Sequence record: NC_069154.1
DNA length: 39,791 nt
Source: Klebsiella phage VLCpiS11a
Reading direction: 5' to 3' (one strand)
The position numbers were made by a program, and so were the translations under genes. This document shows, piece after piece, positions 1 through 38,483 of the stretch (positions within the stretch are counted from its first letter, which is position 1; each line of letters starts with the position of its first letter). The notes beneath the pieces were generated by a model. That model ran no database searches. It had not been told where the DNA came from and worked only from the letters and a program-made list of their open reading frames with translations.

Positions 1-127
1 CCTCGGATTTACCCGTGCCGAAGCCCGCCACGAAAGCCGGGAATTTACAATGCATGTTGAGGAATGCCGCCTGCGGCTCAGTCGCCTTTATGCTGATTTG
101 CACCGACGACCTCCACGACGACTTTCT
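1..127. repeat. 127-bp direct terminal duplication (identical to 39665-39791); circular-permutation or assembly overlap of a roughly 39,664-bp genome unit
   Basis: Read directly: bases 1-127 (cctcggatttacccgtgccgaagcc...gacgactttct) recur exactly at 39665-39791. The duplicated segment is the 5' end of the terL gene and the 3' end of terS. Confidence 0.9.
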
Positions 128-581
128 GGATAGGCTGGTCTTTTTCTGGGTCTTCGCCCGCCGGCTCACGCATACCATGGTTGCATTTCAGAATGAAGGC
201 CGCACCGTTACCGCCTACCCCGGCGGCGGACAGCTCCATGAGAAATGCTTTCTGCAACGATTCGGCGTCGGCGTATGCGCGGTCCCATTCCGGCCAGTGA
301 TCACGCCAGTTGCGCAGCGTGTCACGGTTGACGCCGATCGACGCGGCGAAGCGCTCGAACGTCGGCAGCTTGCCTACCGGAATAACCTGGGCGGTGCCCT
401 TGGCGGATAGATGTATTTTCCACGACGCCGGCTCGGAGAAATAGCGCAGCAGCGCGCCGCAGTATTCCGGGCGGTAGTCGGTCGGTTTATCGTTGCTGCC
501 GATGTCGTGCGGAAAGCGCTCGCCTTTCTTCCGTTTCGGCGGGACTCCCCTTAGATGTTTCGGCTTCGGCTTTAGATTCAT
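78..581 (-). CDS. terS: terminase small subunit
   Basis: Carries the Terminase_2-type motifs (LPTFERFAASIGVNRDTLRNWRDHWPEW; GNGAAFILKCNHG). Lies immediately upstream of terL with a 26-nt overlap across the junction. Start set at the second ATG (MNLKPKPK...), which is preceded by a GGGGG RBS; the ORF-track start at 608 has no RBS. Confidence 0.65.
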   Translation of the reverse strand: MNLKPKPKHLRGVPPKRKKGERFPHDIGSNDKPTDYRPEYCGALLRYFSEPASWKIHLSAKGTAQVIPVGKLPTFERFAASIGVNRDTLRNWRDHWPEWDRAYADAESLQKAFLMELSAAGVGGNGAAFILKCNHGMREPAGEDPEKDQPIQKVVVEVVGANQHKGD

Positions 582-646
582 ATAACCCCCATTATGCTTG
601 CGTACCATACGCGCGCACCAGCGGCCCCCAGGGCCACGTTAATGGG

Positions 647-4252: not shown

Positions 4253-4520
4253 TTGTCGCGATGGTCATTTACCGAGAATTCATGGTCACACGGCGCCGGC
4301 GGCGTCGCGTCTCCGCATTCCTGGTGCGCGGCTGCCTCTGTGCGCTCCTCGACCGCCTGAATAACGGAGATGCGGACGCGGTCCGACGGCAGCGCCTGCA
4401 CGTGGCCGTTAGCGTTGACACGGATGAACGCCAGGCCGGTGATCTGCGCTTCGCGTAACGCCTCGGCGAACGCGTTCAATACTTCATGCTCACGGTTCAT
4501 AATCCGCAATCCCCTTTGCG
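4222..4520 (-). CDS. small protein with a C-terminal zinc-ribbon (CDHEF...CLYC)
   Basis: Start taken at MNREHEV, which has an AAGGGG RBS 10 nt upstream. Four Cys/His residues at the C-terminus. Confidence 0.4.
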
Positions 4521-4742
4521 GCAACCGCGTTGCCCAGGCGGCGCTTTGCGTGTCGGGCGCTCCTGGTAGTTGTTGCCGATTAAGTCGAAGTAATGCTCGA
4601 GATGCTTTGATACCCAATAAACCTGCCCTACTGGGGCGCGTCCTATTGTAGGCTTAGTCAGCCGCAGCACTCTTGGCCACTCTATGACGAGCACGGCGCT
4701 TCCGGTGAGTCTATGACGCAATATCTGGCCTTTCTTAAACAT
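4497..4742 (-). CDS. DUF2158-like small protein (MFKKGQILRHRLTGSAVLVIEW)
   Basis: The N-terminus resembles the YodC/DUF2158 pattern MxFKxGDxVxLKSGGPxMTV. This is from memory. Confidence 0.4.
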   Translation of the reverse strand: MFKKGQILRHRLTGSAVLVIEWPRVLRLTKPTIGRAPVGQVYWVSKHLEHYFDLIGNNYQERPTRKAPPGQRGCRKGDCGL

Positions 4743-4772
4743 GATATTTACTCCTGTCGTTTCGGTCCTCTT

Positions 4773-4801
4773 AGTATATGTCTAAACCAATGTTGGTTGC
4801 A
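4773..4801 (-). promoter_or_regulatory. putative promoter TTGCAA-17-TATACT (minus strand) for the 4742 operon, overlapping a TTGGTTGC motif
   Basis: -35 is rc of 4796-4801, -10 is rc of 4773-4778; the gene start lies 31 nt downstream. Confidence 0.45.
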
Positions 4802-5028
4802 ATACTGAATAGCAAAAATAAGGGCCGCGATAACTGGTATGGTAGTCAACTAGCCTACTTGCGTGCGTGGGGTGCTGAATTCGCTAGGACTAATCTTAAT
4901 ACCAATACCCACCATTCCCGACACTAAAACCTGCGTAACCAGCTGCCTGAATCACCGCAACCAACCAGAAAAATTATCCTGTCTCCTCGTACCGCATACT
5001 TGCTGCCGTTATATTTACATTCTGGCTA

Positions 5029-5057
5029 TTGCAAACTCGCAATTAAAATGATATGCT
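5029..5057 (+). promoter_or_regulatory. putative rightward promoter TTGCAA-17-TGaTATGCT inside the 555-bp non-coding region (candidate sRNA/antisense or origin transcript)
   Basis: -35 at 5029-5034, extended -10 at 5049-5057. An ACTCGCAA iteron lies in the spacer and structured GC-rich hairpins lie downstream (5078-5125). Confidence 0.35.
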
Positions 5058-5286
5058 CACTGCGTTCGCTTGGCAAAGCCCGCCAAGGCGACTTGCCTGC
5101 GACGCAAGAACGTGAGCATTTCAGGTTTTGCGAATAAAATCCCTCCCTAAATCAATCACTTACATACCGACTCGCAATCCATTTTTGCGAAAACCAACAA
5201 AAACACCCTAAGTTATTGAAAACGTTACTCGCAATTTCATTCGCAAAATTTTGCGAGTCTTGCGAGCCCATTCGCATTACTCGCAA
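5035..5286. repeat. iteron cluster 1: at least 9 copies of TCGCAA/ACTCGCAA in both orientations plus a 19/20-bp palindrome ATTCGCAAAATTTTGCGAGT (5239-5258)
   Basis: ACTCGCAA at 5035, 5170, 5227 and 5279. TTGCGA at 5129, 5185, 5251 and 5260. The cluster lies directly 3' of the primase-helicase gene. Confidence 0.6.
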
Positions 5287-5297
5287 CACGTATTATT

Positions 5298-7598
5298 TTA
5301 CGAGTTTAAGTCTTCATCACTTGCAACCAATTCCGGCGGGTCAAAGTCGTTTACGCCAGTCGGCAGCCTGTATTGTTGGTTGTAAACTTCGCCCGTATCC
5401 GGGTTGCGGCCATGCACTAAAACCCGTCGTCGCACTAACTCTTCCAGCACTTTTTTATAGTTGCCGCTGGTGAACTTGTTTCCGCCGGCGGTGCCGATCG
5501 CATAGGGTGAGTATCCCTCCGGGCGATCATCCAGCAGTTCGAGCTGGGCCACCATCACCTCTTCGGCCTTGTTCTTGGGCCCTGCGCCACCGGAGGCTTT
5601 CACCGCCTCCCGGGCTACTTCGGCAGCTGGCGATTCGAACGGGGTCAGGGCGACCGGTACCAGGTACAGCGTTTCGTCGCGCGGCGACATCTCCAGCGGT
5701 TTCGGCGTCCAGCCGGACAGCTGATCGGAAAAGTCCGGGCCCGCGGCGGTAGACAGATACGCGTCAACGCGGTCGGCGTGCGCCTGGGGGACGTCGATTT
5801 TACATTTCAGCAGGACGAAGCCACGCGGTGACTGTTTGATGCCGTTACGCGCTTTTTCGTGATAGAGGTTGATCTGGTGTGGCTTCGTCTCGTCCGGCTG
5901 CTCGATGAAAAAGGCGTAATCCACGGCGCCATGCAGCGCGCCGGAGCCGCGGGCGGTACGCTGGCCCGAGGATGACTTCGCCGGGTGGTGGATAACGCCG
6001 GCGCTGCCGCCAGTGGTCTCGGATATCTGTTTAAGCGCGCGGACAATTTCCCCCATATCGGTTGGGGAGTTTTCGTCGAACGGCTTTTTAGCGGTGCTGC
6101 GCATGGCGACGGTCTGGTTAAGCGAGTCGAAGGCCACCATGCCGACTGGCGAATCGCCGGCCGCGTCGCGGATGATTTTGCATACCTCTTTCACGCCACG
6201 CGCGTCGGTGATGTCGATGCCTTTATCCTGCAGGTCGATAATATGTAGCCAGTCCAGGTCGTCCTGGTACATCTTCTGCAGCGCCTGCTTACGGTGGAGG
6301 CTGGTTTCGCCGCCTTCCGCATCGAAATAAAAGTTGTGGGCGCGGACGACACGCCGTCCGCCGAACGGGATCCCGGCGGATATTGCCGCCATCTGGCCCA
6401 GGACGAAGAACGATTTACCGATGTTCGACTCGCCGGCGGCGTACCACGTCGATTTGAAGTTAACCAGGCCCTCAATGATGGGGTCACGCTTGGTGAACAG
6501 GGTAACCGGGTCGTCGTCCAGGTCCTCGTCGGTACACTGGCCGGCGGCGGGCCCGTCGAGCGCAGCCATCACCTCGGCCTCGTAGACGTGGGTGATCTCC
6601 TCTTCTGGCAAATCCGGCAGCAGTTCGGCGATCTGCTTTTTGCTGATATTATGCGCTTCGGGCAAATACTGGTCTGGCACGCCGCAAAGGCGCAGCATCA
6701 TGTGCTGGTGTGTGTTGTGCTTCCTGCAGTGGTCATGCTGGCACGCAAAGCGCACCTCGGGGTGAAGGGCGTCGGGCATCATGATCGCCGTGCTACCGTC
6801 GGTCCCGTCGTTGTCGCTGTGCTGGAAGTGGTTGGGGCATTGGATAGCGAAGCCACGACCAGAGGATAGCGGTTCGAGGCCCATCTCCCAGCACCACGCG
6901 GCGATTGCCTGGCTGTTCTCGCTGGCGTTCTCCAGCGCTTCGTCGGTCCAGTTGGTTGAGCCCGATTCGTCCGGCACGTCGAACCGGTGGCGCAGGACGC
7001 GGCGGACGCTGGCCGGCGCGCCGCGGTGGTCGACGGTTTCCGCTTCGATATGCGGGGCGAACATAAGGCGGGCGCGCTGGAATGCGGTTTCGTCCATCCC
7101 TTTCGCGCCGGTGAGCCCGAGCATATCGATGAATTTGTGCTGGCACGGCCAGATCTCATCCGCCAGCATCGGCCGGTCCGTTGGAATGATGAAACGCCAG
7201 GAGCGCGACTTAAAGCCGCCTTTCAGGTCGTGCCGGTCGCCGCAGGTGGAGTAGGCGAAGAACGTGTATCCGCCATCCTCCAGCGTGCGACGCACCCGGC
7301 GGATCTCTTTGCTGGATACTTTGTCGATATCGATAAACAGCAGGGACCGGGAAATGACGTTGTTGTTATTGCGCTTGTTGCGCTCAAACTCGGCGGCGAC
7401 ATACGGCAACCGGCCTTTCTTTTCTTCGTAACGATCTTCGGTCTCGCTGCCGTCAATGGATACCCCCAGCACGGGGTCGGCGCCGATCTCCAGCAGGTCG
7501 TCGATAAACTCATCCCAGGAGGATTCGAAAGCCTTCGGGCGATTGTCGGTTTTATGCCGGCCGAGAGAATAGGATATTTTTGATTTTAACCGTGGCAT
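5298..7598 (-). CDS. bifunctional primase-polymerase (AEP family) fused to a P-loop helicase
   Basis: Prim-pol DxD motif SLLFIDIDK. Cys/His zinc motif CPNHFQHS...CQHDHC. Walker A GESNIGKS and Walker B MVAFDSL. 766 aa. A GCAACCAA motif lies in its last codons. Confidence 0.85.
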   Translation of the reverse strand: MPRLKSKISYSLGRHKTDNRPKAFESSWDEFIDDLLEIGADPVLGVSIDGSETEDRYEEKKGRLPYVAAEFERNKRNNNNVISRSLLFIDIDKVSSKEIRRVRRTLEDGGYTFFAYSTCGDRHDLKGGFKSRSWRFIIPTDRPMLADEIWPCQHKFIDMLGLTGAKGMDETAFQRARLMFAPHIEAETVDHRGAPASVRRVLRHRFDVPDESGSTNWTDEALENASENSQAIAAWCWEMGLEPLSSGRGFAIQCPNHFQHSDNDGTDGSTAIMMPDALHPEVRFACQHDHCRKHNTHQHMMLRLCGVPDQYLPEAHNISKKQIAELLPDLPEEEITHVYEAEVMAALDGPAAGQCTDEDLDDDPVTLFTKRDPIIEGLVNFKSTWYAAGESNIGKSFFVLGQMAAISAGIPFGGRRVVRAHNFYFDAEGGETSLHRKQALQKMYQDDLDWLHIIDLQDKGIDITDARGVKEVCKIIRDAAGDSPVGMVAFDSLNQTVAMRSTAKKPFDENSPTDMGEIVRALKQISETTGGSAGVIHHPAKSSSGQRTARGSGALHGAVDYAFFIEQPDETKPHQINLYHEKARNGIKQSPRGFVLLKCKIDVPQAHADRVDAYLSTAAGPDFSDQLSGWTPKPLEMSPRDETLYLVPVALTPFESPAAEVAREAVKASGGAGPKNKAEEVMVAQLELLDDRPEGYSPYAIGTAGGNKFTSGNYKKVLEELVRRRVLVHGRNPDTGEVYNQQYRLPTGVNDFDPPELVASDEDLNS

Positions 7599-8658: not shown

Positions 8659-9357
8659 ATGCGCCTTACCAAAGATATTAAAAACCAGCTGATCACTAAC
8701 TTGCTGAAACAAGCCCCTCTCGGCCTGCGTGCCATCGCGTGCATGGAAGAACGCCGCGACATCGTGAAGACCGCTCGCCTGCTGTGCCTCGCTGCCGAGA
8801 AGACAACCGACCTCGAGATCCGCGGCCTGCGTGAAATGATTAAGCGCAAGGGTGCGGCGGTCGACAATAATTTTGTAAGTGTCTATGCCGCGGTTTGCGA
8901 AGTGGACAAGGACAATTATCACTCTTACACCATAGACTTTGCCGTCGGTGGCGAGGTCCATTGTCGAATGCTGGACGGGTTCGACCGCCACTATCAGCCA
9001 GGGATCGGGCGTCGTGCGCTTCATGATTGTGAATATTTCGGCTGGTGGCTGTATGAGCTGGCGGAGTTCAAGGACGATGGATACTTCCTGCCGCGTGAGC
9101 GCGTCCTGATTGATGCCGACCCGGCATTGCAGGAGCGTATCGCGAAAGCGGATGCGGAGTATCGGGATCTGTTCTCGGAAGTTGTAGCATGGCGCGCGAC
9201 CATGCGCTCAAATCTGGCGGCGGTGAACACTTCCGAAAAATTGCGCGAAGTATGGCCGGAAGCATTCCCATTCTTACCGGCGCAGGCTAAAACGCAGACG
9301 GCAGCGATCGCGCTGTCACCTGAAACCCTTAACGCTTTATGTGGGCTGCCGAAATGA
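8659..9357 (+). CDS. hypothetical early protein (232 aa)
   Basis: ORF with a CAGGAGT RBS. No recognisable motif. Confidence 0.5.
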   Translation: MRLTKDIKNQLITNLLKQAPLGLRAIACMEERRDIVKTARLLCLAAEKTTDLEIRGLREMIKRKGAAVDNNFVSVYAAVCEVDKDNYHSYTIDFAVGGEVHCRMLDGFDRHYQPGIGRRALHDCEYFGWWLYELAEFKDDGYFLPRERVLIDADPALQERIAKADAEYRDLFSEVVAWRATMRSNLAAVNTSEKLREVWPEAFPFLPAQAKTQTAAIALSPETLNALCGLPK

Positions 9358-15740: not shown

Positions 15741-15916
15741 GAGTTTTAGCGGGAGCAATCAAACGTGGCGACGTGCTGCAGGTTGGTGATGTTCTGGAAA
15801 CTGTTTTCGATGCCTTCCGATCGCTTGATGCACAGAAACAGGAGATCCGCGTTATCCAGTTCGAAAGCGGGACAGTTATGATCCTGGAATATTCCGATAT
15901 CGTGGAGCGCGTATGA
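15737..15916 (+). CDS. small hypothetical protein (59 aa)
   Basis: ATGA overlaps at both ends. Below the ORF-track cutoff. Confidence 0.3.
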   Translation: MRVLAGAIKRGDVLQVGDVLETVFDAFRSLDAQKQEIRVIQFESGTVMILEYSDIVERV

Positions 15917-16410
15917 AAAAACCGATAAATCTGGACCGCATAAAGAGACTGCTTACGTACGACCCGGAAACAGGTGTTTTTACCCGGCTGGTCTCTGTCA
16001 AAGGCAGAAATGCGGGCGACATTGCCGGGTGTCTGTCAGACCGCGGATACGTAAATATCGTTGTTGATGGCGTGCGATTGAAAGGCCATCGTCTCGCGTG
16101 GGCTTTTGTCCACGGGGTCTATCCAGAATTCGAGATCGACCACAAAGACCGCAATCGGTCTAATAACGCCATTGACAATTTAAGACCTGCGACGCGAAGT
16201 CAGCAGATAGTAAATCGCGATACATCTGCCAGAAATACCAGTGGGGCAAAAGGTGTGTATATGCTGCCGTCTGGACGCTGGCGAGCTCGCATTTGTAAGG
16301 GCCGGAAATATATCCATCTCGGCTATTTCGATTCTATGGCAGAGGCTGAATCAGTTTACAAAAAAGCCGCTTCTGAATTGTTTGGGGAGTTCGCCGATGT
16401 CACGCTTTAA
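15913..16410 (+). CDS. HNH homing endonuclease with C-terminal AP2 domain
   Basis: HNH_3 motif EIDHKDRNRSNNAIDNLRPATRSQQ. AP2 motif GVYMLPSGRWRARI...HLGYFDSMAEAESVY. Confidence 0.8.
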   Translation: MKKPINLDRIKRLLTYDPETGVFTRLVSVKGRNAGDIAGCLSDRGYVNIVVDGVRLKGHRLAWAFVHGVYPEFEIDHKDRNRSNNAIDNLRPATRSQQIVNRDTSARNTSGAKGVYMLPSGRWRARICKGRKYIHLGYFDSMAEAESVYKKAASELFGEFADVTL

Positions 16411-17818: not shown

Positions 17819-18516
17819 TGGTTGTCTGGAGCCTGTTCTACGGGTCTGGGTTAATGGTTAACCCTTGGGCGGAAGCCGGCCATACTTGCTATTGCTTCAA
17901 CTTCGAAGACGAGGACCACGGCAGCTATAAAGACGTTGCTGTGCGCCATGAAAACATTCATTACGTGAACGCGTGGATCAACTCCTCTTTTGCGCGTCGA
18001 GCCATCCGGGGTAAATGGCCTAAGCCAGATATTATTTTCGCGTTTCCGCCATGCACGGATATGGCGTCGAGCGGTGCCCGATGGTTCGCTTCAAAACTCG
18101 CTGCAGATCCAGAATGCCAAAATAAAGCCGTCGCCACCGCGCGTATTGCGGAATACCTGGCTAACTATTTCGGGGCCCCGTACATGGTGGAGAATCCGCG
18201 CAGTGTGCTGTCGAGCCTTTGGCGTAAGCCTAACAAGATATTCCATCCGTGGCATTACGGCGGCTACCTGCCCGAAGACGACGTGCATCCTAACTTCCCG
18301 CAGTACATCAAAGCGCGGGACGCCTACCCGAAGGAGACGTGGTTATGGACCGGGAACGGGTTCAAGATGCCCGAGGCCAAGGCGGTGCCGCTCGATGACG
18401 GGTATAGTGAACAATATTCACGGCTGGGCGGGAAGACCGCGCGCACGAAGCTGATCCGGTCGCTCACCCCACGCGGTTTCGCTATCGCGGTATGTGAGGC
18501 CAACTATGGCGGATAA
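17815..18516 (+). CDS. short DNA C5-cytosine methyltransferase-like protein (233 aa)
   Basis: Motif I LFYGSGL (FxGxG). Motif IV AFPPCTDMASSG (PC). Motif VI MVENPRSV (ENV-like). Too short for a canonical target-recognition domain. Confidence 0.5.
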   Translation: MMVVWSLFYGSGLMVNPWAEAGHTCYCFNFEDEDHGSYKDVAVRHENIHYVNAWINSSFARRAIRGKWPKPDIIFAFPPCTDMASSGARWFASKLAADPECQNKAVATARIAEYLANYFGAPYMVENPRSVLSSLWRKPNKIFHPWHYGGYLPEDDVHPNFPQYIKARDAYPKETWLWTGNGFKMPEAKAVPLDDGYSEQYSRLGGKTARTKLIRSLTPRGFAIAVCEANYGG

Positions 18517-18997
18517 ATCCAACACCGCACCAGAGGATAAGGACTGCTGGCGAACGCCGCCGGAGATATTCGAACCGCTTAACGAGAGGTTTAATTTCCG
18601 CTATGACATGGCGGCAGCAGACCATAACGCCCTTTGCGCACGGTACTACACCGAACAGGATAGCGCCCTGGGTATCGAGTGGCCTGCGGCGTGGAAGTGG
18701 TGCAATCCGCCGTATTCTAAGCCGCTGCCGTGGTTCCAGCACGCCGCGCAGTACCGTAGAACGGTGTTACTCCTGCACCTGGCCGTTGCTACGCAGTGGA
18801 TGGATATAGCGCGCCGGGAGGCGAATACCATTATTCAGCTGACCGAGCGCATCCAGTTTATCCACGCCAGGACCGGCGAGCGCGCGGCGACGAAGAACAA
18901 CCGCGACTCGCAGATCATTATCTTCGGCCGGCGACCTAATCCCGACGGCGCGCGCATCGTCCAGTGCTCGATCGCGGATATCGCAAAATATCTGTAA
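18506..18997 (+). CDS. phage-type DNA N6-adenine methyltransferase (Dam-like, pfam05869 type)
   Basis: WRTPPEIFEPLNERFNFRYDMAA and the catalytic CNPPYS motif. Start at MADKSNT, which has a GTGAGG RBS. Confidence 0.8.
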   Translation: MADKSNTAPEDKDCWRTPPEIFEPLNERFNFRYDMAAADHNALCARYYTEQDSALGIEWPAAWKWCNPPYSKPLPWFQHAAQYRRTVLLLHLAVATQWMDIARREANTIIQLTERIQFIHARTGERAATKNNRDSQIIIFGRRPNPDGARIVQCSIADIAKYL

Positions 18998-25752: not shown

Positions 25753-28092
25753 TTAGAATCCTGGCTGGTTGCGCGTGTTACGGCGGGAAAGCGAGATCTG
25801 CGAGTTGCTGTCCTGCAGGTCCCCGGATACCGTTTCGCGGATTATCACCCGCAAACGCCCTTCATCATCGCGTTCTGTGCTGGCCTGGTCAATACGCCCG
25901 GTAGTTTGGTTGACGATCACCACACTATCGCTACTGTTCTGCTTGCTGCCGTTCTCACCCATAATCTGGCGCATCTGCTGCGCGGTGCGCACGCGAGACG
26001 CCGAGGCGGGCATAATCACTTCCGGCTTGCCACGCTCGGCGATAGTCGACGCCTGCCCGGCCGACAGTGTGCCGCCCTGCTCGCGCGCCGACCGGATTTT
26101 AGCGACGTTAGCTGCGCCCGCAGCTACGGCAGCGGCGGCAGCGGCTACGCCCAGCGCCGGGCCAATGATAGGGATAGGGGCGAGGGCGGAATAGGCCGCG
26201 GTAGCCGCTTTGTAGGTGTTGATCACCGTTTCGGTGATGGCGGCGGCTTTATATAGCGCGTTACCTTCGCCGAGGGCTGATTTAAGCGACGACGTGGTGT
26301 CGCTTAACGTTTTCGAGTAGGAGTCCAAGCGCTTCTCGTCCGCCTGCTGCGCAATCTGCAAAAGCGCATTTTGATACTCCTGCTCGCTTATGATCCCTCG
26401 ATCGTAAAACTCTTTGGCTTTGTCCTCTTTTGCTTTCTGCTGTACGTCGATAAGCTCCAGCTCTGTCGCGTTCAGCGCCTGGATATCGGCGATATACTGG
26501 TCGTGCTGGCCCTGTTTCCTGGCGGCTTCCTGCTGCCGCTTATCCAGTTCTTTCTGGCGGGCTGCGCCGGCTTCGAGCACTATCGCGGTTTTCGCGTCTT
26601 CATACTCTTTTTGAGTAATGTTTCCCGCTTCCAGATATTGTTTAGCCTTTTCTAATTTTTGCTGTTCCTTCGCATCTATCTCCTTTATCTCGTCCGAATT
26701 AGTGCGAGCTATCTGGTCTAAAAAAGATTGGGCGTTTTTGTCCTGTGTAGCTTTCGCGTTAGCTTCACGTTTAGCTGCAGCCGCGGCACGGGTGGCAGCA
26801 GCTTTTTCCTGCGCCGCTGTTTTTTTAGCCTCTCTTTCATCGAACTTTTTCAGTTCATAGGCCGCCTCGGCGTCACGGGCTTTGTTAAATTCAGCGATTT
26901 GGGCCTTAGTTACGCCTTGTCTTTTGGCAAAAGCCTCTTTATCAAGTTTAGCCTGGGCCGCAAAGCGGTCCCGCTCGGCCATGCCCTGAATCTTAGTCGC
27001 GGCGATTATTGCATCGTTCTGGTCCCGTATTTGTCGTGTGGCTTCGTTAGTTGCAGCTCCCATCTTTTTCTGGGATTCGGTAACAAGATCCTGTTGTTTC
27101 TGCGCGGTCGCCAGTGCGTTCGCGTTCTGCTGCGCGGCGGTGGCCTGGTCCAGCAGTTCTTTCTTGTTTTCCTTGGCAGCTACCGCCGCGGCTGCCGTTG
27201 CGTCGGCGACCTTCTGCGCGTTTTCGGCCGACGGCTCGGCGTTAAACTGGCGCTGGGCCACCAGCATGTCGGAAATTTCTTTTGTGCCTACGCCATAAGT
27301 CGCGGCCAGCTCATTCACCGCGGCGGCCAGGTTACCGTATTTCGCGCTGTTCGCATCGGCGAGCACGTTGATATTGGACAGCGTATCGCCGACATTCATG
27401 TTACGCGCGATCATATCGTCCAGGGTGGCGATATTGGTCTGCGCAGCGACGCTGCTACCGAGTAGCTCTTTTCCCTGCTCGCGGATCGCCGTCGTGGCCC
27501 GCTCGATTTGCTGCGCCGCCTGCAGGCCGATAAGCTTAACCATACTGCCGTATGCGGCGTCGCCGTTCTGGCTAAGTTGCACCAGCGCGTCGGAAAACTC
27601 AATCGTGCCATCTTTGGCGGTCTGGAACGACTTGGAAAGCTCGCTCGCGCCTTTCTCCAGGTCTTTAGCGCTGGCGCCGGTGTCGGTGAATGCCTTATAC
27701 AATACACCGCCAACGGCAGAAGCCAGGGCGATAACGGCGCCCAGCACCGCGCCGCCCGGGCCGAATGCGCCGGCAAGCTGGCTACCCTGCTGGCCGATAG
27801 CGACGAAGGCCGACGTGCCGCTCTGCAGCTGTACGACCATATCCTGGACCTGGAAACCGACTTGCTGCGCGCCGTTACGAAAAGCCGACATCCCACCTTT
27901 AGCGGCTTTAACCATCTCGTCATTGGATTTCTTAACGTCCGGCGTTAGCCGGTTAACCGACGCGTCGGCACGGTCGGCGGAGGAGGCAAACTGATCAAGC
28001 TGTTTCGCCCCGGCGTCCGCACCTTCCGTCTTCACCCTTGCAACTAGTGACGCTGTGTCAGCCATCGTGTCTGCCCTCGAAAATGGCGTCAA
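25753..28092 (-). CDS. tail tape measure protein
   Basis: 779 aa. Ala/Gln/Glu/Lys-rich coiled-coil composition. Located after the chaperone pair. Confidence 0.85.
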   Translation of the reverse strand: MTPFSRADTMADTASLVARVKTEGADAGAKQLDQFASSADRADASVNRLTPDVKKSNDEMVKAAKGGMSAFRNGAQQVGFQVQDMVVQLQSGTSAFVAIGQQGSQLAGAFGPGGAVLGAVIALASAVGGVLYKAFTDTGASAKDLEKGASELSKSFQTAKDGTIEFSDALVQLSQNGDAAYGSMVKLIGLQAAQQIERATTAIREQGKELLGSSVAAQTNIATLDDMIARNMNVGDTLSNINVLADANSAKYGNLAAAVNELAATYGVGTKEISDMLVAQRQFNAEPSAENAQKVADATAAAAVAAKENKKELLDQATAAQQNANALATAQKQQDLVTESQKKMGAATNEATRQIRDQNDAIIAATKIQGMAERDRFAAQAKLDKEAFAKRQGVTKAQIAEFNKARDAEAAYELKKFDEREAKKTAAQEKAAATRAAAAAKREANAKATQDKNAQSFLDQIARTNSDEIKEIDAKEQQKLEKAKQYLEAGNITQKEYEDAKTAIVLEAGAARQKELDKRQQEAARKQGQHDQYIADIQALNATELELIDVQQKAKEDKAKEFYDRGIISEQEYQNALLQIAQQADEKRLDSYSKTLSDTTSSLKSALGEGNALYKAAAITETVINTYKAATAAYSALAPIPIIGPALGVAAAAAAVAAGAANVAKIRSAREQGGTLSAGQASTIAERGKPEVIMPASASRVRTAQQMRQIMGENGSKQNSSDSVVIVNQTTGRIDQASTERDDEGRLRVIIRETVSGDLQDSNSQISLSRRNTRNQPGF

Positions 28093-35172: not shown

Positions 35173-35407
35173 TCACATTCTTAACCCAGTCCTGCAGCTG
35201 GTACACCTGCAACCGCAACCGCCGGCCACAATCCATATTCTGCACATCCGCGTTTAGATCCGCGTCACTGTCCTTTTCCGCTGCCTGAAACTGGCACGGC
35301 TTCGTCATCATAGCCGGGGATGGCGTTGGCATTGTCGATAGCACGCTGTTTGAGTTGCACCCGGTCATCGTCAAAATTACAGCGAACGCGATCAAGATTC
35401 TGCACAT
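35159..35407 (-). CDS. o-spanin (Rz1-like lipoprotein) in the +1 frame, overlapping the end of Rz
   Basis: MCRILIAFAVILTMTGC signal with a Cys, then Pro-rich PTPSP. Strong internal RBS AAGAGGTGG. The lipobox is non-canonical. Confidence 0.5.
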   Translation of the reverse strand: MCRILIAFAVILTMTGCNSNSVLSTMPTPSPAMMTKPCQFQAAEKDSDADLNADVQNMDCGRRLRLQVYQLQDWVKNVTTPL

Positions 35408-35651
35408 ATTTAACCACCTCTTTCGTTATCACAACGGTTTTTGCCGCTCCGGCCCGATCGGCTTCTACGGCCTTCTTGTCGTTAACCTGCTGCGCGGCCA
35501 CTCGTTTAGCGAGCGCCGATCTCGCTTTCTCTTCCTGCTGGCTAACCAGTTTCGCGCGGCCGTCGTTCCAGCCGTTATGGTATTGCCATTTACCGAAACC
35601 AACAAGGGTAAGGATAACCGCTACCGCAACCAAGATATAAACTTTCCACAT
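35265..35651 (-). CDS. i-spanin (Rz-like)
   Basis: N-terminal TM VYILVAVAVILTLVGFG followed by a charged coiled-coil periplasmic domain. AAAGGTGG RBS. 128 aa. Confidence 0.6.
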   Translation of the reverse strand: MWKVYILVAVAVILTLVGFGKWQYHNGWNDGRAKLVSQQEEKARSALAKRVAAQQVNDKKAVEADRAGAAKTVVITKEVVKYVQNLDRVRCNFDDDRVQLKQRAIDNANAIPGYDDEAVPVSGSGKGQ

Positions 35652-35683
35652 ATCGCCACCTTTACAATTGCTGCCGTTGATTT

Positions 35684-35915
35684 CTCGCAAAATAAATGAT
35701 ACGATCAGCTTCGCTTTTGAGCGACGCCTCGCAAAGGCGGGCGCGCAACAAGCAATTGAAGTGATCGATTCAGCCCACCACGTTATAACTCCTTGATTTA
35801 TCTTACTTATTTTCACCACTCGCAAACTAAAACGGCAGCAACCAACGAAAATGACGTAAGTCCTTGATAAATATACTCGCAATTCGACTCGCAAAATTTT
35901 GCGAGTCTTGCGAAT
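35684..35915. repeat. iteron cluster 2: 7 or more TCGCAA/ACTCGCAA copies plus a perfect 20-bp palindrome ACTCGCAAAATTTTGCGAGT (35887-35906)
   Basis: TCGCAA at 35684, 35729, 35820, 35877 and 35889. TTGCGA at 35901 and 35910. Homologous over about 70 bp to 5227-5306. Confidence 0.6.
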
Positions 35916-35934
35916 CGGTGCTACACGTAATTTA

Positions 35935-36984
35935 TTACGAGTTCCCGGACAAGAATTTGGCTACGCGTTTATCGTTGTCCGCCATCTCGCGCAGGGTCAA
36001 CGGGCGCCCGAAACCGTCAACCGAAGCCGCCCGGAATTCCTCCGCCGTCATGCCGCTATTGCGGAAGATATTACCGCGCACTGGTCCGAGTGCCTCATCC
36101 TGGAACCATGCCGGCTGCATACGGAGGAACTCATAATATGACGTGTCCGCATCAACCTGGGTCCCTCCGTCAGCGCCGCGCGCCGCACGTTTAGCGCCTG
36201 CGTCCAGGAAGTCAAATGATTTGTCGATCACTGGTGCGGTTGTCGTCCGGCAGTTCGGATGCAACGGCGGCAGCGGCCCCTTACCGATGTCGTACACCTT
36301 ACCGTGCGGCAGGTTTCGACAGATAGACGACGTCCGCTTGTCCAGGGTCACCACCAGCTCGTAGCCCTCCACAATATCGTCGTTTTTCTGGTAGGTTAAA
36401 TTCTTCGCCTCGGTCGACACGTGATTCATCGCCGTGCGCACCACCGTTGCCGCATTGCGGTTTGACACGTCGGCCAGCCCGCCCGGGCCGACTACCTGGC
36501 GCACGATATCGCGCGTCGACATGCCCTGCACAAAGCCCGATTTAACGCCGGTGACCAGACGATTAATTTCCGTGTCCTGCCAGCTGGTCAACATGTCCTG
36601 GAAGTCTACCGGTTTACCTTCCAGCTGCAGCGGGTTGAATTTAATGGCCGACCAGACTTGATCCGGCGCTGGTGTGGTGAAATTGGCGTTGACGAATTCA
36701 CCCATCGTGTTCGCTGACCAGGCGGCTTCGTATTCGGCAATAGCCCTGAGGTCCGCTATAAGGCGGCCCTCCCATTTTCCGGAGGTGCCATACAAAATAT
36801 CCTCCATGTCTTTTAACATCTTCTCCAGTCGCGCGCGGGTGCGGCTCTCGTCCCCGAAAGCCAGCACCTTTTGCTTTACCTCATCGCGCATCTGCTGGAT
36901 GAACGGCTCCAGCTCGTTCACCTCATGCGAGGCGTTGCGCTGGAGCCAGATCTGGTGGCTAATGAATGCGGTTAAGAGGCTCAT
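35935..36984 (-). CDS. head morphogenesis protein (SPP1 gp7 / Mu F-like)
   Basis: 349 aa and directly downstream of the portal gene with an overlap. Assignment by gene order. Confidence 0.55.
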   Translation of the reverse strand: MSLLTAFISHQIWLQRNASHEVNELEPFIQQMRDEVKQKVLAFGDESRTRARLEKMLKDMEDILYGTSGKWEGRLIADLRAIAEYEAAWSANTMGEFVNANFTTPAPDQVWSAIKFNPLQLEGKPVDFQDMLTSWQDTEINRLVTGVKSGFVQGMSTRDIVRQVVGPGGLADVSNRNAATVVRTAMNHVSTEAKNLTYQKNDDIVEGYELVVTLDKRTSSICRNLPHGKVYDIGKGPLPPLHPNCRTTTAPVIDKSFDFLDAGAKRAARGADGGTQVDADTSYYEFLRMQPAWFQDEALGPVRGNIFRNSGMTAEEFRAASVDGFGRPLTLREMADNDKRVAKFLSGNS

Positions 36985-38483
36985 ACGGACGCCGCCTGGT
37001 CGCTGCCGGTTTGCTGATTAGCCGACGCTGGGATGTCACCGTTAACCGTCGTCGCAGTGCCGCGAGTCGGGATCGGCTGATCTGCAATAGCATCCTCGAT
37101 CTGTTCGTTGGTCCAGTTCGTCACTCCAGCCTCGCGCAGCGCTTCGTAATAAGCGGTTGCAGGGAGAAGTCCCGCATTAATATCGGATACCCAAGCGGCG
37201 CGGTCCTGCGCGGTCATCGGCTTGAGGAAGAACTCCATGTTCAGCTTAAACTCGATGTCGGCCGTGTCCGCATTAAGCATGCCGGCGACCCACTTAAGCG
37301 CGTCGGTGTAGGCCTGGCTCACGTTACGGGCGATCGTAGACATAACTGACGTATCGGCCCCGCGCTGCAGCCGCGCGGATTCGGCGGTGATCTGCACCGT
37401 TGGGGTGATCAGCTGCGCGCCGATCTGCACCGCCTGCTGCTCCTTGTCCAGCATGTTTTGCTTCGCCAGGTTATTCTCGGCAGCCTGAATAAGCTGCGCG
37501 GTGCCGCCGGCGCCGATATTGTGGCCGGTACGCGAGCCCATCTTAACACCGCCCGGGTTGGCCTTGTTGAATTGTTCGAGGTTCATATTCTCGCCAGGGG
37601 ACATAAACAGCGTAGGCTGCCCGACGACGAAACTGGACTCTTCATTATCAGCACTGTTTCGGAAATGACCGATATTCAGTTCTGCCAGGGGCAGGATCGG
37701 CGGGTCATCCGGCGTGTGGTCGTTATTGGTCGCACCGATGAACGTAAACGGGATGATCCCCGCGGGCACGCTGGCGAGGTTAGGGAAAATCTCCTTCACG
37801 TCGCCGCGCATAACGCCCTTCTGGTCGAATTGATACAGGCGCTGCCGATATTTACCCTCTACGATGTCGAGCACGCGGTACTGTTCGCCGTAGCTGGTGC
37901 TGAATTCATCCTGCCCGCTGTTGTACTCGTAGGACTCGCGCAGGACGATCAGCGAAACGCGGTTAACCGACCCTACCCGGGTGAGACGCCAGTTAATGAT
38001 GTTCTCGGCAGTATAGAAAACGATGACCGGGTTTAATAATCCCTCGTTCTGCTCCGCCATTGTCGCGGCGCCCGTCTCCGGGGCATCAACCAGCAGGCCG
38101 CCGCGGCCGATTGAGTCGATCTCCATTAGCGTGTCCTGGGCGTGCTGCCAAAGGCCGACACCGGAACCGTCGCAGTTGGTCAGCAGATATTCCAGCTGAT
38201 CGGGGATCGTCTGTTCCGGGTCCTTACGCATCACGCTGCCGACCATCCCGGATAACGTGCGCTTGGTGAAGTTGTAGCAGATCGCCCCGTCTTCGTATTC
38301 CCGCTGGCGCTGCTTGCCGTATTCCGGGTCGCCTTCGTTCTTCCCTACATTGCGCAGATATTCCTTAAGCTCGCCAGCGATGGCGTGGCGCACCTTCTGC
38401 CATTTCGGCATGTATTTTTCATAATCCGGATGCAGGGTTTTGACGTTCATCCCCGATCCGGCGTTGATATTGGCTGTCGTCAT
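36981..38483 (-). CDS. portal protein
   Basis: 500 aa. Directly downstream of terL. GAGGA RBS. Confidence 0.8.
   Translation of the reverse strand: MTTANINAGSGMNVKTLHPDYEKYMPKWQKVRHAIAGELKEYLRNVGKNEGDPEYGKQRQREYEDGAICYNFTKRTLSGMVGSVMRKDPEQTIPDQLEYLLTNCDGSGVGLWQHAQDTLMEIDSIGRGGLLVDAPETGAATMAEQNEGLLNPVIVFYTAENIINWRLTRVGSVNRVSLIVLRESYEYNSGQDEFSTSYGEQYRVLDIVEGKYRQRLYQFDQKGVMRGDVKEIFPNLASVPAGIIPFTFIGATNNDHTPDDPPILPLAELNIGHFRNSADNEESSFVVGQPTLFMSPGENMNLEQFNKANPGGVKMGSRTGHNIGAGGTAQLIQAAENNLAKQNMLDKEQQAVQIGAQLITPTVQITAESARLQRGADTSVMSTIARNVSQAYTDALKWVAGMLNADTADIEFKLNMEFFLKPMTAQDRAAWVSDINAGLLPATAYYEALREAGVTNWTNEQIEDAIADQPIPTRGTATTVNGDIPASANQQTGSDQAASV

Follow-up and report, generated by a model that had tools for sequence, protein, structure and literature searches.

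A duplicated iteron module next to the primase-helicase gene of Klebsiella phage VLCpiS11a as a candidate replication origin

What is the function of the repeat-filled, non-coding DNA that lies 3' of the primase-helicase gene of Klebsiella phage VLCpiS11a? The sequence analysed (record NC_069154.1, one strand, 39,791 nucleotides, hereafter the window) is, at ~39.8 kb, essentially the whole genome of a small, Guernseyvirinae-like siphophage. A first-pass annotation, made from the letters of the sequence, had proposed a replication origin at this locus. We arrived at the same explanation with moderate confidence: the locus, here called module A, is probably an iteron-type replication origin recognised by a self-loading primase-helicase. 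An origin is the best-supported explanation of the locus, and it was strengthened by the repeat fields of related phages, by a predicted winged helix in the primase-helicase, by consensus sites for integration host factor (IHF) and by a paralogous copy of the module elsewhere in the genome. The picture first drawn of its architecture nevertheless needs amending. There are two modules and not one, a single long hairpin carries the -10 hexamer of a promoter in its base, and a separate promoter lies at 4802-4773. By analogy with known systems, the second module (module B) may be a second origin or an initiator-bound barrier.

The gap free of open reading frames (ORFs) spans 4743-5297, between the ORFs at 5298..7598 (-) and 4497..4742 (-), and the limits 4742 and 5298 give exactly the 555 bp stated by the first-pass annotation. 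At least nine direct and inverted repeat copies had been claimed for this gap, and nine exact TCGCAA cores were located within 5037-5286 (5037+, 5128-, 5172+, 5185-, 5229+, 5241+, 5251-, 5260- and 5281+). Five of these nine cores belong to the full word ACTCGCAA, and the iteron consensus word is AC(T/A)CG(C/T)AA. Across the whole window TCGCAA is not enriched (33 copies observed, 33.6 expected). Its distribution is uneven, however, with 16 of the 33 copies falling in two stretches of ~250 bp, nine in 5037-5286 and seven in 35685-35913. At the rate found outside both clusters, 0.12 copies are expected per 272 bp, and the Poisson probability of nine is ~1e-14. Regions A and B were also the top two 272-bp intervals genome-wide for the number of times any one 6-mer occurs. 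When region A itself was shuffled conservatively, so that the dinucleotides contributed by the repeats themselves were preserved, only 14 of 5000 trials reached nine or more copies of some 6-mer.

The remaining parts of the core were likewise found where they had been described. GC content is 33-42% over 5120-5300, compared with ~55% for the genome, and the 20-bp near-palindrome ATTCGCAAAATTTTGCGAGT occupies 5239-5258 and is followed by CTTGCGAG. The near-palindrome sits inside a cluster of four iterons (5227-5267) whose sites are spaced by 12, 10 and 9 bp. The sequence of this cluster is the same in all 14 distinct A and B modules compared, an identity that is partly enforced because the modules were retrieved with a 25-nt probe from the cluster. 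At the end of the module next to the gene, TTACGAGTT is unvaried across all A and B modules, and in module A it overlaps the stop codon of the primase-helicase gene (5298-5300). The terminal palindrome, degenerate in the window, is perfect in the relative L019, with the pair CTCGTAAT/ATTACGAG. Exact matches to the IHF consensus WATCAANNNNTTR number four in the window (0.97 expected), three of them within the modules (5150+, 35786- and 35857-).

Module B lies among the late genes; its neighbours are the MuF-like head morphogenesis gene (35935..36984, -) and the genes for an Rz-like spanin (35265..35651, -), the scaffold and the major head protein. When 4990-5320 was aligned with 35650-35960, mean column identity was 77% at a constant offset of 30,648 bp. 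The TCGCAA cores of module B lie at 35685+, 35729+, 35820+, 35877+, 35889+, 35899- and 35908-, and the last five sit exactly 30,648 bp from their counterparts in module A. The four-site cluster of module B holds a perfect 20-bp palindrome, ACTCGCAAAATTTTGCGAGT, at 35887-35906, and the A/T-rich stretch is present. If the window is a circular map, the two modules are ~9 kb apart. The six iterons common to A and B are identical at 44 of 48 positions (92%) and the rest of the module at 126 of 235 (54%), which marks the words as the constrained part of the module. The primase-helicase and MuF-like genes are unrelated and yet share their last nine nucleotides, AAC TCG TAA (5298-5306 and 35935-35943). 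Because the terminal TTACGAGTT overlaps the stop codon in both modules, both upstream proteins end in Asn-Ser, and the overlap of this half-site with both stop codons indicates that the duplicated block took in the end of a coding region.

Conservation of the module was assessed in close relatives, comprising seven IMG/VR contigs and Klebsiella phage 37P2 (Guernseyvirinae), with primase-helicases 97-99% identical to that of the window (98% for 37P2). Over window positions 4300-6000 (1.7 kb), 37P2 is 93% identical across 78% of the length, and it was the sole match in nucleotide searches with the module against the phage collection. Module A is present in all eight close relatives and is nearly invariant apart from two hairpin alleles. 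A B-type module was recovered from 37P2 (1605-1820) and from five or more of the seven contigs.

More distant relatives were informative in another way. The first-pass annotation had asked whether the repeats are absent from relatives with the same replication genes. They are not: every phage or contig with a 48-61%-identical primase-helicase carries a cluster of a short word, in both orientations, in the gap 3' of the gene. The word is TCGCAA in L023 (10 copies, the same core as in the window), TGTGCGGAA in L024 (4-5 copies), AGGGATAA in L027 (5-7 copies), GGGAT(C/T) in L026 (6 copies) and, more weakly, TTCTGCAAAA and CACCTA in L025. In named phages it is GGGGGAGA in Salmonella phage VSiP (Cornellvirus; 7 copies), GCGGGACA in Dhillonvirus Pride (6-7 copies) and GCAACCAAC in Edwardsiella phage eiAU (Eiauvirus; ~10 copies). 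A fixed position combined with a mostly lineage-specific word is the pattern that would be expected of sites co-evolving with a cognate binding protein. Second clusters occur in two of these phages. That of Pride, at 7101-7351, precedes the tape-measure gene and has a ~190-bp core nearly identical to that of the first cluster; the second cluster of the eiAU word lies at the record ends, also before the tape-measure gene. The second locus is not group-wide, and its genome position differs among the window lineage, Pride and eiAU.

Several other sequences near these fields were recorded. GCTGCCAACA, at first a candidate for the L026 iteron, belongs to a second, dispersed motif family (GCNNCCAAC), which leaves GGGAT(C/T) as the likelier local word. 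ACGGCAGCA, at the module edge, seemed to be conserved between lineages but was not used as a cross-lineage element: CGGCAGC is very frequent throughout the genome (70 copies), probably through codon usage, and in relatives every 22 kb holds 21-22 copies of ACGGCAGC. In eiAU an 898-bp gap (26895-27791) lies behind the primase-helicase gene and contains, besides the GCAACCAAC copies, a long-range inverted repeat, GCCCCGGGGGCACTTATTGATTTATAAGG ... CCTTATAAATCAATAAGTGCCCCGGGGC, with arms ~230 bp apart. GAATAGTTATGCA occurs once or twice just past the primase-helicase stop codon in VSiP (37150-37190), Pride (~35410-35430) and L027 (12310-12345), and is conserved although the iteron words of the three differ. 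At the other edge of module A, a small ORF beginning MKQITVSDK abuts ACGGCAGCAAGTAT in about half of the close relatives (L001, ~10891-10711; L007, L010 and L011). This ORF carries its own ribosome-binding site, and the window and the remaining relatives have ~250 bp of non-coding DNA in its place. The alternation of ORF and non-coding DNA marks this edge of the module as a recombination or insertion boundary.

The product of the neighbouring gene is the candidate initiator. It matches the PHROG family 'replicative helicase-primase' (E = 3.6e-266) and is laid out as a PrimPol-like N-terminal PF08800 domain, a Cys/His cluster, a RepA/AAA_25 core, a predicted C-terminal winged helix and an acidic tail. 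An AlphaFold2 model of the last 171 residues has the order helix-helix-helix-strand-strand, with predicted local distance difference test (pLDDT) values of 84-89. When this model was compared with the PDB by Foldseek, nearly all of the 50 matches listed were winged-helix proteins (MarR family, linker histones H1/H5, Fur, ScpB and one plasmid initiator). We therefore predict that the C-terminus is a winged-helix domain. The last ~100 residues are by far the most divergent part of the protein (30-57% identity for the C-terminal part versus 52-64% for the core). The first 650 residues of the L023, L024 and L025 proteins are equally similar to the window protein (64%), whereas identity in the C-terminal domain is 57% for L023, which shares TCGCAA, and 47% for L024 and L025. 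L026 and L027 have a common GGGAT core and similar C-terminal domains. These few comparisons are suggestive of a C-terminal domain that tracks the iteron word. The acidic tail is conserved as well, ending in SDEDLNS in the window (5298-5330) and carrying DDLE or DDLEN in relatives. It recalls the acidic C-terminal tails of T7 gp4 and gp2.5, which tether these proteins to the polymerase.

On the far side of the A/T-rich stretch, the GC-rich hairpins first described at 5078-5125 were resolved into one. A stable hairpin does exist there, but it is a single 75-nt structure with limits at 5049-5123. Folded as single-stranded DNA it reaches -21.7 kcal/mol (z = -4.5) on the plus strand and -22.2 kcal/mol (z = -5.1) on the minus strand, and none of 200 shuffles was as stable; across the hairpin folds of both strands, z lies between -4.2 and -5.1. 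Module B carries a third version in addition to the two alleles of module A, and L024 and L025 have homologous hairpins that are longer than those of the window lineage. For eight distinct versions RNAalifold predicted 20 pairs, eight of them with compensatory double changes. The alleles and versions are set apart by compensatory changes, namely GCTCAC/GTGAGC versus GATCAC/GTGATC, GGCAA/TTGCC versus GGCGA/TCGCC and GCCT..AGGC versus GCCC..GGGC. The hairpin base contains two GATC sites in module A allele 2 and in module B, and none in allele 1.

The inward promoter that had been placed at 5029-5057, with an iteron as its spacer, can be read directly in the sequence: a -35 hexamer TTGCAA at 5029-5034, TG at 5049-5050 and a -10 hexamer TATGCT at 5052-5057, with ACTCGCAA in the spacer (5035-5042). 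All 14 distinct A and B modules keep a -35 TTG, a 17-nt spacer, the TG and a TAnGnT -10. The same arrangement is found in L024 (TTGATT-17-TG-n-TATGCT) and L025 (TTGACT-17-TG-n-TAAGCT), from lineages with 61% and 60% primase-helicase identity. The case for this candidate promoter rests on its conservation in relatives. A promoter scan listed a minus-strand site, TTGCCA-17-TATCAT, whose -35 varies in other versions (TCGCCA, TCGCTC, GCGCCA and CCGCCA); as this -35 is not conserved, the plus-strand promoter was preferred.

A repeat field with a hairpin and a promoter could also be a transcriptional boundary or operator module, in which the repeats are operators of a phage regulator other than the initiator, and which, together with the hairpin and convergent promoter, stops or gates read-through from upstream genes into the following transcription unit. 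Both modules do lie between genes of the same direction, where one unit could plausibly end and another begin; operators of dimeric regulators typically take the form of such a 20-bp palindrome, and a convergent promoter could give transcriptional interference. In the window lineage the hairpin, read in the direction of the genes, is followed by the T-rich tails TTTTAATT, TATTTTTT and TTTATTTT. The tail is separated from the main stem of the hairpin and is lineage-specific, and a scan for intrinsic terminators found no site in 4600-5400 on either strand. A second terminator scan returned a single site, located outside the hairpin of module B. L024 and L025 have an A-run in place of the T-run of the gene direction, yet retain the promoter on the other strand; this points to a promoter directed at the A/T-rich stretch, rather than to a terminator, as the conserved function. 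An operator made up of nine sites over 250 bp, in both orientations, would be unusual, and module B divides late genes from late genes. The word is not found at any other promoter, and no clustering of iteron words is seen in the early divergent promoter region of the window or of five other lineages. The only other recognisable DNA binder of the early region, a 78-aa Cro-like helix-turn-helix (HTH_3) protein encoded upstream of the primase-helicase, has a similarity among relatives that does not follow the iteron word, and the iterons were therefore rejected as its operators. Taken together, a boundary or operator function appears unlikely.

Less probable still is a small or antisense RNA unit, in which the plus-strand promoter drives a structured RNA, antisense to the 3' end of the upstream gene, that regulates this gene. 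The promoter-like site is kept in A, in B and in two further lineages, and a stable structure lies directly downstream of it. Two of the covarying pairs, however, are inside the -10 hexamer, upstream of any plus-strand transcript start, so the pairing must be selected in DNA or in opposite-strand RNA. The scans found no conserved plus-strand terminator. Rfam 15 gave no match at the gathering threshold in the window, and at an E-value threshold only two chance-level matches in 4700-5400 (E = 0.47 and 0.77), none of them below 0.4. The two presumed targets, the primase-helicase and MuF-like genes, have only nine nucleotides in common, and an antisense RNA leaves the iterons and the IHF-consensus sites unexplained.

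We consider it very improbable that the modules are another kind of DNA-protein assembly site, such as a pac site, a hotspot of recombination or a site that organises the nucleoid, occupied by some phage protein. There are two copies per genome, and repeats with IHF-consensus sites characterise pac, cos and att complexes as well. Neither module adjoins the small-terminase gene, for which reason a pac site was rejected; the distances are ~4.4 kb and ~4 kb, the latter across the window ends if the map is circular. The universal copy is tied to the primase-helicase and never to packaging genes, across genera with rearranged late regions. Hardest of all to sustain is a duplicated selfish or neutral intergenic repeat without a function of its own, for although the module was evidently block-copied together with nine nucleotides of the upstream gene's end, and the near-identity of the Pride copies suggests recent copying or gene conversion, the iterons are far better conserved than the rest, the hairpin shows compensatory changes and the position is constant across genera while the word turns over.

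Several results weigh against the origin explanation and its details, and are considered together here. DnaA boxes (TTWTNCACA) are absent from the whole window. The best Foldseek matches to winged-helix proteins have probabilities of 0.97-1.0 and E-values of only 0.03-0.3, so the likeness is a resemblance at the level of the fold. The link between C-terminal domain and word comes from one pair that shares a word, the window and L023, and a common word, predicted at first for P0006 and P0011, was borne out only once the repeats of L026 had been re-read as GGGAT. A tblastn search of PLSDB plasmids with the primase-helicase found no independent replicon made of the gene plus repeats; the one full-length match (28% identity, a 44-kb record) is probably a phage filed as a plasmid. 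The inward promoter falls below the threshold of the scan tool and was not listed by it, because it agrees with the consensus at 8 of 12 positions where 9 are required. In the window lineage, the hairpin with its T-rich tail may terminate gene-direction transcripts too. VSiP gave no second cluster, and the five metagenomic loci L023-L027 gave none within +/-10 kb. Finally, Jerseyvirus SETP13 and Kagunavirus K1ind2, whose helicases are only ~30% identical, differ in their organisation and have no 3' repeat field. SETP13 (L028) has five copies of AACTTAAA with GC-rich hairpins at 780-1030, in an intergenic region upstream of its replication operon, and this may be an equivalent element in another place.

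If module A is an origin, initiation might proceed as follows. A hexameric primase-helicase would dock via its C-terminal winged helices onto the AC(T/A)CG(C/T)AA words. Six docking words are common to A and B, and four of them, about one helical turn apart, surround the 20-bp palindrome. IHF would bend the adjacent ~100-bp A/T-rich stretch, which would then melt. The primase-helicase would load itself and prime with its PrimPol-like domain, and the PolA-type polymerase of the phage would extend the primer. The inward promoter and the 75-nt hairpin, on the far side of the A/T-rich stretch, may aid opening or priming, either through transcriptional activation or as a structure-specific start signal. 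Module B could be a second start site, or a barrier bound by the initiator, a role also proposed for oriR of SPP1, that helps the switch to concatemer synthesis.

Most of these features can be compared with characterised systems. Close in layout are the Staphylococcus aureus pathogenicity islands (SaPIs), in which the C-terminal winged helix of the self-loading initiator-helicase Rep/PriRep5 binds 6-12 penta- or hexanucleotide iterons located directly downstream of the rep ORF (PMC9371898). The SaPI iterons surround an A/T-rich region in both orientations, and their words are element-specific (PMC9371898). The phage similarly has a series of nine hexanucleotide cores in both orientations that starts from the stop codon, along with A/T-rich DNA and a predicted winged helix, and in both systems a primase is fused to, or lies beside, a hexameric helicase. 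The phage iterons lie on both strands, within the A/T-rich region and on either side of it, with a symmetry below that of the SaPIs. The likeness drawn here is one of layout. The phage helicase core is RepA/AAA_25-like and its N-terminus is PrimPol-like (PF08800). The phage also differs in its Gram-negative host, in being a lytic 40-kb phage with its own PolA, and in having an additional hairpin and promoter and a second module.

A precedent for two loci is SPP1, whose oriL and oriR have common repeats and an A/T-rich unwinding element, and whose oriR interrupts the late region at a stretch carrying moron genes (PMC6316719). It has been proposed that oriR stalls forks and so triggers the switch to concatemer synthesis (PMC6316719; PMC3485210). 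SPP1, a ~40-kb siphophage, thus resembles the present phage in having two distant loci of repeats with A/T-rich DNA, one at the initiator gene and the other in the late region; they are ~13 kb apart on the circular map of SPP1 and ~9 kb apart here, if the map is circular. In the standard gene order of SPP1, oriR follows gene 7, for head morphogenesis, and precedes the scaffold gene, the slot that module B occupies in the present phage. SPP1 uses a separate origin binder (gp38), a helicase loader, a DnaB-type helicase and the host DnaG, whereas here one multifunctional protein is the candidate for these roles. In addition, oriL lies inside gene 38, while the origin candidate here is non-coding and has a second copy in some lineages only.

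Other replicons provide partial parallels. The winged helix of the P4 alpha protein binds origin repeats (cited in PMC4234260). Like alpha, the phage protein is a multifunctional primase-helicase of ~770 residues with a winged helix, predicted in our case. The domain families differ, as alpha combines a Toprim primase with an SF3 helicase. P4 needs a second, distant repeat cluster (crr) with the same octamers. In the plasmid pRN1, a stem-loop of ~100 nt just downstream of the ORF904 gene is an essential cis element, and the authors of that study remarked on similar layouts in some phages (PMC4234260). The order of genes and elements is the same, with the orf56 repressor followed by a protein that joins a primase of the archaeo-eukaryotic type to a helicase and a winged helix in pRN1, and the 78-aa HTH gene, the primase-helicase gene and the 75-nt stem-loop in the phage. 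The helicase of pRN1 is, however, SF3, and pRN1 is without iterons. In the phage the iterons dominate, and the hairpin is distal to them and overlaps a promoter. In RSF1010 (IncQ), oriV contains ssiA and ssiB, two inverted-repeat hairpins of 40 nt on which the RepB' primase starts (PMC8567376). The AAA_25 family of the phage protein is annotated as RepA-like, a further point of likeness. RSF1010 has three separate proteins (RepA, RepB' and RepC) where the phage has one polypeptide, and a hairpin as priming signal is an analogy only. In RSF1010 oriV, RepC-bound iterons and an A/T-rich region adjoin ssiA and ssiB. At the lambda origin with pR, the T7 primary origin and T4 oriF and oriG, a promoter fires into or beside an A/T-rich unwinding element; by comparison with these transcription-activated origins, the promoter considered here is a conserved consensus match.

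Every ingredient of the module has precedent. A bolder possibility, which we put forward tentatively and consider on the whole doubtful, is that the combination is a composite origin of a kind so far undescribed for tailed enterobacterial phages. One PrimPol/RepA-like/winged-helix hexamer would act at six iterons, an IHF-bent A/T stretch and a switch hairpin, together with module B. As part of this same joint proposal, the hairpin, selected at the DNA level, would be a structure-dependent priming or on/off signal, since its extrusion would destroy the promoter and vice versa. Also within it, module B would be a second origin, or else a programmed barrier to forks that sets off the change from theta to concatemeric replication.

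Minus-strand genes occupy two stretches of the window, one from ~7.9 kb down to position 1, the other from 39.8 kb to 19.9 kb. In 1-kb bins, the cumulative GC skew of the window is lowest at 5-6 kb and highest near 19-20 kb. This minimum is weak evidence for an origin because gene orientation confounds it. The primase-helicase gene, on the minus strand, has a positive skew over 6-8 kb, which places the switch in skew nearer to module A than to the switch in gene orientation (~8 kb). The promoter at 4802-4773 is inside the gap and outside the module; it is kept in relatives L005-L011, and its -35 belongs to a dispersed motif, ATTGCAACCAACAT. The features are listed in Table 1.

Table 1. Positions of the two modules, their parts and other features of the window
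Feature	Position	Strand	Details
Module A, whole conserved non-coding module	5000..5306	.	from TTGCTGCCGT to TTACGAGTT; aligned with module B
Inward sigma-70-like promoter (candidate), antisense to genes	5029..5057	+	TTGCAA, 17-nt spacer, TG-n-TATGCT
GC-rich imperfect hairpin, 75 nt	5049..5123	.	inverted repeat; base includes -10 hexamer
A/T-rich segment, candidate unwinding element	5124..5228	.	iterons 5128-, 5172+, 5185-; GC 33-42%
IHF-consensus sites of module A	5150-5162; 5209-5221	+; -	exact; one mismatch
Four-site iteron cluster	5227..5267	.	ACTCGCAA 5227, ATTCGCAA 5239, TTGCGAGT 5251-5258, CTTGCGAG 5259-5266
Last iteron and degenerate palindrome	5279..5305	.	ACTCGCAA 5279-5286; ACACGTATTATTTTACGAGT 5286-5305; palindrome overlaps stop codon
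Primase-helicase gene, 766 aa, candidate initiator	5298..7598	-	Pfam PF08800, PF13481; PHROG
Separate sigma-70-like promoter for downstream operon	4773..4802	-	TTGCAA, 18-nt spacer, TATACT; promoter scan
Module B, paralogue of A	35668..35943	.	same parts, same order as module A
Promoter-like site of module B	35677-35705		TTGATT 35677-35682, 17-nt spacer with TG and iteron, TACGAT 35700-35705
Hairpin of module B	35697-35772		size as in A; z = -4.7
IHF-consensus sites of module B	35786-35798; 35857-35869	-; -	
Small-terminase gene	78..608	-	
Nmad5 nucleotide-modification-associated protein	8659-9357	+	replication arm
HNH endonuclease with AP2 domain, probable homing endonuclease	15913-16410	+	replication arm
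Dam-type adenine methyltransferase	18494-18997	+	replication arm
Plus-strand genes	8.1-19 kb	+	Nmad5, PD-(D/E)XK protein, Enc34-type SSB, PolA, SNF2 helicase, Dam
Minus-strand gene order		-	HTH gene, primase-helicase, small genes, lysis, terminase, portal, MuF-like, spanin, scaffold, capsid, tail
Second-motif sites	1925, 4957, 5323, 8090, 11392, 35626, 35838	+	
Second-motif sites	4793, 15420, 15454, 19001, 28861, 34812	-	

The dispersed second motif, GCAACCAA(C), is frequently extended to ATTGCAACCAACAT and has 13 copies in the window against ~1 expected for an 8-mer. The copies are mostly found at the boundaries between genes; some supply the -35 of a promoter-like site, as at 4802-4773, and several flank the origin-like modules. 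Variants occur in other lineages: GCGGCCAAC nine times in L023, GCTGCCAAC six times in L026, GCAACCAAT in Pride and many copies of GCAACCAAC in eiAU. The motif probably serves as a promoter or regulator element, and the conserved Cro-like HTH protein may recognise it.

In the searchable literature we found no mapped or described origin for this group of small enterobacterial siphophages, which takes in 37P2-like phages, Cornellvirus, Dhillonvirus, Eiauvirus and several metagenomic lineages, and no account of these repeats for the four named groups. What is noteworthy here is the turnover of the word at a fixed position over many lineages, the duplication of the module and the presence of a promoter within a covarying hairpin. 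A defined 300-bp cis element with a predicted binding domain opens the way to cloning of the origin and to phage-derived replicons for synthetic phage work. As each lineage has its own iteron word, replication-specificity groups become testable, and if the composite-origin proposal is true, fast turnover of the word defines such groups among otherwise similar phages. Resistance by origin decoys is testable as well, with extra plasmid-borne origins titrating the initiator. Escape mutants of Dhillonvirus HK578 against the OLD system map to the helicase-primase, and the findings bear on how defence systems that sense replication initiation perceive these phages. The second copy, finally, poses the Gram-negative counterpart of the SPP1 oriR question: does a second initiator-binding site drive the switch to concatemer synthesis?

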